NCBI GenBank assembly: GCA_905234185.1
Contig: CAJOGC010000001.1
Coordinates: 31,765 to 95,764 of the forward strand
From: an uncultured Alphaproteobacteria bacterium
GTDB taxonomy: Bacteria; Pseudomonadota; Alphaproteobacteria; Rs-D84
DNA: 64,000 nucleotides
Direction of reading: 5' to 3'
The position numbers and the translations under genes are program-made. A model generated the notes under the pieces. It was not told the origin of the DNA. It ran no database searches and saw only the letters and a program-made list of their open reading frames with translations. Each line of letters opens with the position of its first letter. Position 1 is the stretch's first letter. Of the stretch, positions 43,264 through 43,386 are shown piece after piece.

Positions 43264-43386
43264 TTGTCATTCCTGCGCAGGCAGGAATAGGGTCTTTAAA
43301 ACCGACATCTGGCGACTACGTTATCTTGGCGGGACATTCGTCCCGCGACTTCATAGTCCCTATCCCCGCCTACGCGGGGATGACAA
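43264..43386. repeat. MITE/REP-like element with hairpin-containing terminal inverted repeats
   Basis: Left ttgtcatTCCTGCGCAGGCAGGAatagggtc at 43264-43294. Right gtccctatCCCCGCCTACGCGGGGatgacaa at 43356-43386, which is its reverse complement except for compensatory changes within the 6-bp hairpin stems. Confidence 0.55.

Follow-up and report, generated by a model that had tools for sequence, protein, structure and literature searches.

An inverted pair of AGG-tailed hairpin repeats at the dciA/ruvC junction of a gut alphaproteobacterium, with a probable link to a clade of Ssn-type GIY-YIG nucleases

Repetitive extragenic palindromes (REPs) of the CGTC-1 type were described by Di Nocera, De Gregorio & Rocco (2013, BMC Genomics 14:522, PMC3733652). 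They consist of a CGTC or TGTC tag (CCTC is allowed), an 8-bp stem that nearly always starts with AT, a 4-nt loop, and a 3-nt tail, which is mostly CCA. The repeats are mostly alphaproteobacterial, lie typically just past the 3′ end of the upstream gene, and mostly form head-to-head (HH) dimers with the tags outside and spacers of 20-100 bp (PMC3733652). The family includes dRS3 of Neisseria and RPE-6 of Rickettsia; transposase genes were sought beside the CGTC REPs, and none were found (PMC3733652). Here, we analyzed a 123-bp pair of such hairpins, located between the genes dciA and ruvC at positions 43264-43386 of a 64,000-nucleotide stretch of contig CAJOGC010000001.1 (assembly GCA_905234185.1, positions 31,765 to 95,764 of the forward strand), further called the window. 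The DNA comes from an uncultured alphaproteobacterium of the gut, a relative of Candidatus Enterousia.

In Neisseria, the dRS3 hairpin, also named NTS (CGTCATTCCCGCGMAVGCGGGAATCYRG), is recognised by SsnA, a GIY-YIG nuclease of 94 aa with a single domain. SsnA binds the hairpin only in single-stranded DNA (ssDNA) and cuts upstream of it, at a distance of a few nucleotides (Chenal et al. 2025, Nat Commun 16:2388, PMC11893778). Cleavage 5′ of the tag was shown biochemically for the enzymes of Neisseria and Wolbachia. The base just 3′ of the palindrome is the most critical for binding by Neisseria SsnA, and a change of the stem sequence with the structure kept abolished the activity; in vitro, Ssn homologues showed a degree of cross-specificity towards foreign hairpins (PMC11893778). 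Ssn-related motifs (SRM) were found near 71% of ssnA homologues across bacteria, in 42% on both sides, and the hairpin-ssnA-hairpin layout was likened to an insertion sequence (IS) and to REPs with their REP-associated tyrosine transposases (RAYT) (PMC11893778). A first-pass annotation of the window, made from the sequence alone, offered the parallel between GIY-YIG-linked hairpins and REP/RAYT; both the CGTC REPs (Di Nocera 2013) and the comparison of Ssn/SRM with REP/RAYT (Chenal 2025) had already been published. What is new here is the AGG-tail subfamily of these hairpins, its own Ssn clade, a set of filled and empty sites, and a link between hairpin pairs and a gene-bearing unit within one genome. 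We consider it likely that the window element is an HH heterodimer of CGTC-1-type REPs, an AGG-tail variant of NTS/SRM, and a non-autonomous derivative whose cognate enzyme is an AGG-type Ssn.

The element is composed of two outward-facing hairpin units, each with TGTC, an 8-bp AT-started stem, a 4-nt loop, and an AGGG tail. Its parts are as follows:
43264-43294, + strand: left arm, TTGTCAT TCCTGC GCAG GCAGGA ATAGGGTC; the whole arm reads TTGTC-ATTCCTGC-GCAG-GCAGGAAT-AGGGTC
Left-arm parts: tag TTGTC; stem ATTCCTGC at 43269-76; loop GCAG at 43277-80; stem GCAGGAAT at 43281-88; tail AGGG at 43289-92
43295-43355: spacer of the pair, with an internal hairpin GCGGGAC-ATTC-GTCCCGC at 43329-43346 and an inner inverted-repeat extension AGGGTCTTTAAA / ...CATAGTCCCT
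43356-43386, - strand: right arm, in reverse complement TTGTCAT CCCCGC GTAG GCGGGG ATAGGGAC; the whole arm reads TTGTC-ATCCCCGC-GTAG-GCGGGGAT-AGGGAC
Right-arm parts: stems ATCCCCGC/GCGGGGAT at + strand positions 43362-69 and 43374-81; loop GTAG; tail AGGG
The first-pass annotation had given the arms a 6-bp stem and the same design as the repeats around a GIY-YIG gene of the window. The shared architecture was confirmed, and the stems are 8 bp long rather than 6, because the flanking AT/AT pair too. The arrangement GTCAT, perfect 6-bp stem, 4-nt loop, AT occurs four times in the window, compared with a mean of 0.003 and a maximum of 1 in 300 dinucleotide-preserving shuffles of the window, and chance palindromes were rejected on this basis. 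The folding of the 141-nt region was also far more stable than that of shuffled sequences (z = -5.4 when folded as DNA, z = -6.4 when folded as RNA); as RNA, it forms a single long hairpin of -61 kcal/mol. At gathering thresholds, Rfam gave no match over the entire window. A weak hairpin, TGTC AAACCGCAC-acg-GTGCGATTT, was seen at 14422-14445 (- strand). It has one mismatch and no AT start, and is probably a chance structure and not a family member.

The distribution of the repeat was assayed by a GTDB-wide scan with the pattern TGTCATYCCYGCGNAGGCRGGRATAGG, in which Y and R are allowed at two stem pairs and complementarity is not forced. At least 116 GTDB stretches match; the counts of hosts, neighbours, pairs, and stem bases given below hold among the matches listed. 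Nearly all hosts are gut Alphaproteobacteria represented by metagenome-assembled genomes (MAGs), i.e., Candidatus Enterousia, 'Rickettsiales bacterium', UBA6376, UMGS1304, and ruminant RGIG bins, with several matches from one and the same genome. The window is 100% identical to part of an ENA metagenome contig (L001; ERZ27234812:k119_651343, 233,866 bp). Including a further 17.7 kb of this source contig (L003), about 82 kb of it was covered in total, and it carries three further family copies. The exact left-arm hairpin type recurs at positions 9825 and 13180 of L003 and in many gut alphaproteobacterial MAGs. The first-pass description of a REP- or MITE-like (miniature inverted-repeat transposable element) inverted pair from a repeated family is borne out: the hairpin type is present in multiple copies, both inside single genomes and across different ones. 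In viral contigs, no copy was found. Two pattern matches, L105 and L110, sit in bins labelled Desulfobacterales and Bacteroides fragilis, while every other listed match is alphaproteobacterial; their placement may reflect bin contamination or rare transfer. Short-read contigs often start or end inside these hairpins (position 1 of L002 is window position 43267; also, for example, L022, L023, L058, and L079), as would be expected of multi-copy repeats, which break assemblies. Consequently, the copy numbers in MAGs are probably underestimated.

Neighbouring hairpins were arranged with tags outward in 58 cases, inward in 7, and in tandem in 22. Their spacers fall into families of about 61, 90, 95, and 105-125 nt. 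The recurrence of these families, both inside one genome and across several, indicates that the pair, and not the single hairpin, is the usual repeated unit. The pairs comprise 37 homodimers and 21 heterodimers, and the combination of ATTCCTGC with ATCCCCGC present in the window was seen five times. The window pair can be aligned with one family of pairs from other genomes over its left ~40 nt and right ~60 nt, and the central part of its spacer had no match elsewhere. The conserved repeat starts at TTGTCAT, and the sequence upstream of it is variable.

Differences between the stems of the two arms had been taken at first pass as compensatory changes and as a sign of selection on structure. 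The selection on structure was upheld: both variable stem positions are complementary in 159 of 161 matches. The outer pair is T:A in 130 and C:G in 31, with no other combination, and the inner pair is C:G in 82, T:A in 77, and C:A in 2. The flanks of AGG-type ssn genes, treated below, likewise have differing stems (ATGGCGGGC/ttg, ATTGCGGAC/ttg, and ATTGCGGC/gcag) between a constant TGTC head and AGGG tail. This data supports a structural constraint on the hairpin. The arms are not one arm that drifted and was compensated in place; each belongs to a multi-copy sequence type of its own, and both types are of one repeat family, which makes the pair a heterodimer. No G:T pair was found at the variable positions of the 161 matches, and a DNA hairpin is favoured over an RNA hairpin because of this lack of wobble pairs.

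Compared with the CGTC-1 REPs, the element matches in the TGTC tag of both arms, the perfect AT-started 8-bp stems, and the 4-nt loops, and also in being repeated, mostly tags-outward, intergenic, and alphaproteobacterial. It differs in its conserved AGG(G) tail, whereas the published tails are mostly CCA, a statement made of 'most' tails and not a strict one. The hosts, gut Alphaproteobacteria MAGs, are outside the sample of that survey, in which no enzyme gene was found. Like NTS/SRM, hairpins of this type are oriented with a conserved 5′ flank, occur inverted around small single-domain GIY-YIG genes, and are scattered genome-wide. Among the AGG-type stems, ATTCCCGC is the commonest, and the Neisseria NTS has exactly this stem. 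The differences from NTS include the tag (TGTC instead of CGTC) and the putative partner, an AGG clade that has a distinct N-terminal motif.

The GIY-YIG gene in question lies 5 kb from the element, and it is flanked by hairpins of its own:
48103-48130, + strand: left repeat of the ssn unit, CGTC ATCCCGGC GGAT GCCGGGAT CCAG
48148-48465, - strand: ssn gene; its product is a GIY-YIG protein of 105 aa with a single domain and belongs to the CCA-tail clade
48516-48543, - strand: right repeat of the ssn unit, identical in sequence to the left repeat, with the tag outward
PF01541 is the sole Pfam domain of this protein. By BLASTP, it is 45% identical to Neisseria gonorrhoeae SsnA over the full length (E = 3e-31), with Y6, Y17, and E64 aligned, and tblastn against the gonococcal locus gave E = 5e-21, below the published criterion of E < 1e-10. 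The gonococcal reference (94 aa; Y6/Y17/E64), located amid more than 20 NTS copies, was taken from L144 (NZ_CP119140.1). PLSDB, the source of this SsnA locus and of the NTS repeats, files 2.17-Mb N. gonorrhoeae chromosomes as plasmids (NZ_CP119140.1 and NZ_CP119142.1). A PDB sequence search with the window protein gave no match, and NCBIfam gave one sub-threshold intron-endonuclease match only.

When the window Ssn was used in tblastn against the fetched loci, the homologues split into two clades. The window's clade comprises proteins that are 55-71% identical, have the N-terminus YVYIMAS..MGTLYIGSTSDL, and are flanked by CGTC...CC(A/T) hairpins. The second, the AGG clade, is 35-40% identical to the window Ssn and has the motif WVYILFDERAK.TYIGVTN; its genes have TGTC...AGGG hairpins on both sides, tags outward (L007, L045, L089, and L138-L143). 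The proteins of this clade have mostly 106-109 aa (one has 128 aa), and an AGG-type Ssn is 48% identical to gonococcal SsnA (BLASTP, E = 1e-29) with the catalytic residues aligned. Thus, both the 105-aa window protein and the AGG clade fit the single-domain Ssn family of ~94-110 aa, at 45-48% identity to SsnA. An independent metagenome search with a profile of the AGG clade gave 27 loci at 60% identity or more. TGTC...AGGG hairpins were present on both sides in 18 of them and on one side in 3, and CCA tails in none; in L162, L163, L167, and L168 the stems differ while head and tail are the same. The association with GIY-YIG genes anticipated at first pass was therefore found, as the hairpin type of the element flanks AGG-type ssn genes on both sides in these 18 metagenome loci and in the loci named above. 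CGTC...CC-tail flanks were found on CCA-type genes in the window, L003, L055, L121, N. gonorrhoeae, A. lipoferum, and S. meliloti; the cultured Alphaproteobacteria with CGTC-flanked ssn homologues are Azospirillum lipoferum 4B, Novosphingobium aromaticivorans (pNL2), and Sinorhizobium meliloti. In the case of A. lipoferum 4B (L225, plasmid AZO_p3, 255006-256290), the flanks read CGTC ATCCCCGC GAAG GCGGGGAT CCAG, and the gene lies between sufB and sufC. The inside of an Fe-S cluster assembly operon is a striking site for a presumably selfish unit.

These results bear on the partner that was originally assigned to the element. On the reading of the first-pass annotation, the pair would be a substrate of the GIY-YIG nuclease encoded 5 kb away (48148-48465) and would possibly have been spread by it. 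The pair and the repeats of this gene do share an architecture (GTC tag, AT-started 8-bp stem, 4-nt loop), and some cross-specificity was reported in vitro (PMC11893778). In addition, the AGG-tail hairpin at L003 9825 adjoins CCA-type hairpins upstream of a second ssn paralogue, and the ~82 kb covered of the source contig yielded no AGG-type ssn. This paralogue is 70% identical to the window Ssn, and its flanks are T/CGTC ATCCCCGC GAAG GCGGGGAT CCA. The right-arm stem of the window pair is also the stem that flanks both the L003 paralogue and the A. lipoferum 4B gene, there with loop GAAG and tail CCA. Against the first-pass reading, the tail of the element is AGGG and that of the neighbour's repeats CCAG, and the tail type follows the Ssn clade with no exception in the sample. 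The repeats around the neighbour are unlike the pair in stem, loop, tag base, and tail alike, and it is to the base after the palindrome and to a swap of the stem that Neisseria SsnA is so sensitive (PMC11893778). We therefore regard this explanation as unlikely; judging from the sequences, the CCA-type Ssn at 48148-48465 is probably not the partner or the reader of the pair. Since AGG tails track a separate Ssn clade, the pair should be read by an AGG-type Ssn.

A further group of Ssn homologues (L172-L224), 49-60% identical to the AGG-type profile, has the N-terminus Y.YILF...NGTLY.GVT and comes in many cases from rumen-type samples. At most of these loci, the region within 250 bp had no detected GTC-tagged hairpin; at L178, a TGTC hairpin whose tail is CCA-type lies upstream. 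These homologues may use another, unrecognised motif.

In the MAG UBA6376, both clades coexist (L055 and L089), and here gene-free pairs can be compared directly with a gene-bearing unit. Pairs L036, L092, and L112 share their terminal hairpins with the AGG-type ssn unit and match it at 25-27 of 34 nt beyond the right hairpin, a value that none of 500 shuffles reached. Such sharing is as would be expected if the pairs are internal-deletion derivatives of the gene-bearing unit. The AGG-type gene itself (P0254) was found on 20 contigs, all of which represent one conserved locus of one species; it is single-copy and stably placed. Many sites, which were expected as a sign of recent transposition, were thus not seen.

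The surroundings of the element were compared with those in related genomes:
42916-43248, + strand: dciA, encoding a DciA-family protein of 110 aa
43247-43439, + strand: segment absent from congeners, 193 bp, made of 17 nt, the 123-bp pair, and 53 nt ending in GAAAAT
43438-43926, + strand: ruvC
L137 5849-6002 (congener, ENA ERZ27297854:k141_364018): a different hairpin pair, TGTC ACCCCGGG CTTGA CCCGGGGT CCAG ... plus its partner; the tails are CCA and the loops 5-6 nt long
The comparison was made by alignment with L123-L136, which lack the element. At seven loci of four congeners, the stop of dciA and the start of ruvC overlap (AGAAAATGACACG), and the genes have no DNA between them. The RuvC proteins of these congeners are 85-92% identical to that of the window and the DNA is ~80-85% identical. 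The comparison with relatives called for at first pass thus showed that the pair and its flanks are missing at the congener junctions and are not conserved in position. A locus-specific conserved terminator was rejected, since the congeners are without the element. The GAAAAT at the right end of the segment is a repeat of the 6 nt directly left of the insertion (43241-43246). In L137 (RuvC 90% identical), 154 extra bp are present at the same dciA|ruvC bond, with the different pair listed above; the right flank of this insertion is unrelated to that of the window, and it is bordered by a 2-nt repeat. In both the window and L137, dciA has come to end in TAG instead of TGA, and the insertion begins with AGT. 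Two different pairs at the same bond could reflect an insertion hotspot or the replacement of one pair by another. The congeners hold AGG- and CCA-type pairs at other loci. These observations show gain or turnover of such elements within the genus; the mechanism is not thereby given.

The position of the pair could also be explained if, whatever its origin, it were kept mainly as a host regulator. Placed after dciA, it would uncouple the expression of ruvC as a terminator, an attenuator, or a stabiliser of the mRNA 3′ end, and it would work as RNA or by binding a protein, not as a target of a nuclease. The element begins 16 nt past the dciA stop, which is the typical REP place between co-directional genes (PMC3733652). 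The right arm, read on the + strand together with a T-rich tract, scores as terminator-like. It is followed by a promoter-like site with a TG extension at 43398-43426, and AAAGG precedes the ruvC ATG. The long RNA hairpin described above fits such a role as well. However, the terminator and promoter calls come from consensus scans, which are weak evidence, no Rfam family was matched, and the seven congener loci manage with overlapping dciA and ruvC and no element. The absence of G:T pairs from 161 copies also argues against an RNA function, as RNA tolerates G:U. We therefore hold a primary regulatory role to be quite improbable.

A classical MITE, i.e., an internally deleted IS that depends for its movement on a DDE or HUH (RAYT) transposase from another locus, was considered too. 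The element resembles IS-derived MITEs such as Correia elements and the Coxiella MITEs, in that it is short, intergenic, multi-copy, bounded by terminal inverted repeats, and able to fold into a long hairpin; MITEs of this kind can bring promoters or terminators. Another point of likeness is the direct repeat of 6 bp, GAAAAT, found on either side of the insertion. It borders, however, the 193-bp segment and not the inverted repeats, and is only 2 bp long in L137, so a consistent target-site duplication is lacking; moreover, each terminal repeat of the element is itself a hairpin. No transposase-bearing parent IS with these termini was found among the coding units recovered, and the coding elements found with them carry ssn only, a result obtained with no search aimed at RAYT. 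Together with the lack of transposases beside CGTC REPs (PMC3733652), this makes a classical MITE very hard to credit.

The REPIN/RAYT systems (Bertels & Rainey 2011; Nunvar 2010; Ton-Hoang 2012) offer a parallel in organization. There, as here, inverted REP doublets are the repeated unit, and differing repeat/enzyme pairs coexist in one genome; as in UBA6376, the one species examined, the enzyme gene is single-copy, repeat-flanked, and located at a conserved locus. The systems differ in the tag, which is GTAG-type in REPIN/RAYT and CGTC-type here, and in the enzyme: an HUH tyrosine transposase can rejoin DNA, while the enzyme here is a hydrolytic GIY-YIG nuclease. Enzyme-driven mobility is even less established here than there.

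In the mechanism that we propose, the window pair would derive from an AGG-type hairpin-ssn-hairpin unit and would, like a REPIN or MITE, be non-autonomous. During replication, repair, or DNA uptake, one or the other strand becomes single-stranded, and the arm on that strand would then fold. As the tags point outward, whichever strand is single-stranded would present one cleavable hairpin. By analogy with SsnA, the cognate AGG-type Ssn would bind the folded arm and place its nick just beyond the pair, a few nucleotides away on the 5′ side of the TGTC tag. As GIY-YIG enzymes act by hydrolysis and have no means of rejoining DNA, spread would need host replication or repair. The untidy 193-bp insertion would fit such spread better than cut-and-paste. 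As a local side effect, suggested by the weak consensus scans, the stop-start overlap of dciA and ruvC would have been lost, with a terminator-like hairpin and a promoter-like site now lying in between. Mobilisation by any Ssn is an unproven hypothesis; the data obtained here are those of an insertion polymorphism.

Several results weigh against the proposed relation of the element to an AGG-type Ssn. The published SRM string, HGTCWYN(0-2)YYVSBRHN(0-5)WNVSBRGN(0-2)RNCYNB, matches the Neisseria NTS and none of the four window hairpins; therefore, membership was judged by architecture and gene association. At position +1 past the palindrome, the element has A and NTS has C. Beyond ~40 nt from the ends, the window pair agrees with the ssn unit at 21 of 34 nt, which was reached by 67 of 500 shuffles and is not significant. 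By tblastn, there is no AGG-type ssn in the window, whose element itself flanks no gene, and none of the top 120 homologues lies on the 233,866-bp source contig; the pair may be an orphan. As repeat copies are not independent, the counts of covariation and of association overstate the statistics. The event at dciA|ruvC was also unlike a tidy cut-and-paste: the direct repeat has 6 bp in the window and 2 bp in L137, and 70 bp of the 193-bp segment lie outside the conserved inverted repeat, for which reasons the ends of the mobile unit are not cleanly defined. To our knowledge, no Ssn has been shown to move DNA.

Some observations on the ssn unit of the window stand beside these results. The unit, located after mnmE, is missing in the congener loci L123, L124, and L129. 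The last ~53 bp of mnmE are duplicated beyond it (47978-48030 and 48553-48605, 47/53 identical). The five coding differences between the copies are all synonymous, and both copies encode ANDVMDATFSQLCLGK*, so the second copy was recently a real mnmE 3′ end, probably in another lineage. CGTCAT is present in both copies as well. The sequence comparison suggests that the unit came by recombination along with adjacent mnmE sequence. Just inside the CCAG tails, a second small hairpin is present on each side (AGTCGCC-AAC-GGCGACT and AGTTTGC-TTTC-GCAAACT, at 48131-48147 and 48497-48514). They differ in sequence and are alike in shape, and CC-tail hairpins elsewhere show a conserved TGC...GCA motif at this place.

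The current understanding of these repeats is not overturned by our results, and the two additions are modest. GTC-tagged, AT-started 8-bp hairpins in Alphaproteobacteria can be named as CGTC REPs, or Ssn-related motifs. Among them, the AGG-tail subfamily is missed by the published string and co-varies with its own Ssn clade, which provides a natural AGG-versus-CCA specificity pair for probing what Ssn recognises at the base that was reported to matter most. Filled and empty sites, together with sub-terminal sequence shared with the ssn unit, are the type of evidence with which to ask whether and how such repeats move. We put forward, as a tentative possibility only, that hairpin-ssn-hairpin units are a new class of autonomous selfish element with the outward-facing pairs as their non-autonomous derivatives, in which tail and clade form an orthogonal recognition code. 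If this is true, the AGG/CCA code would let two or more systems share a genome without cross-talk, and the only enzyme of such units would be a hydrolytic, hairpin-guided ssDNA nuclease.

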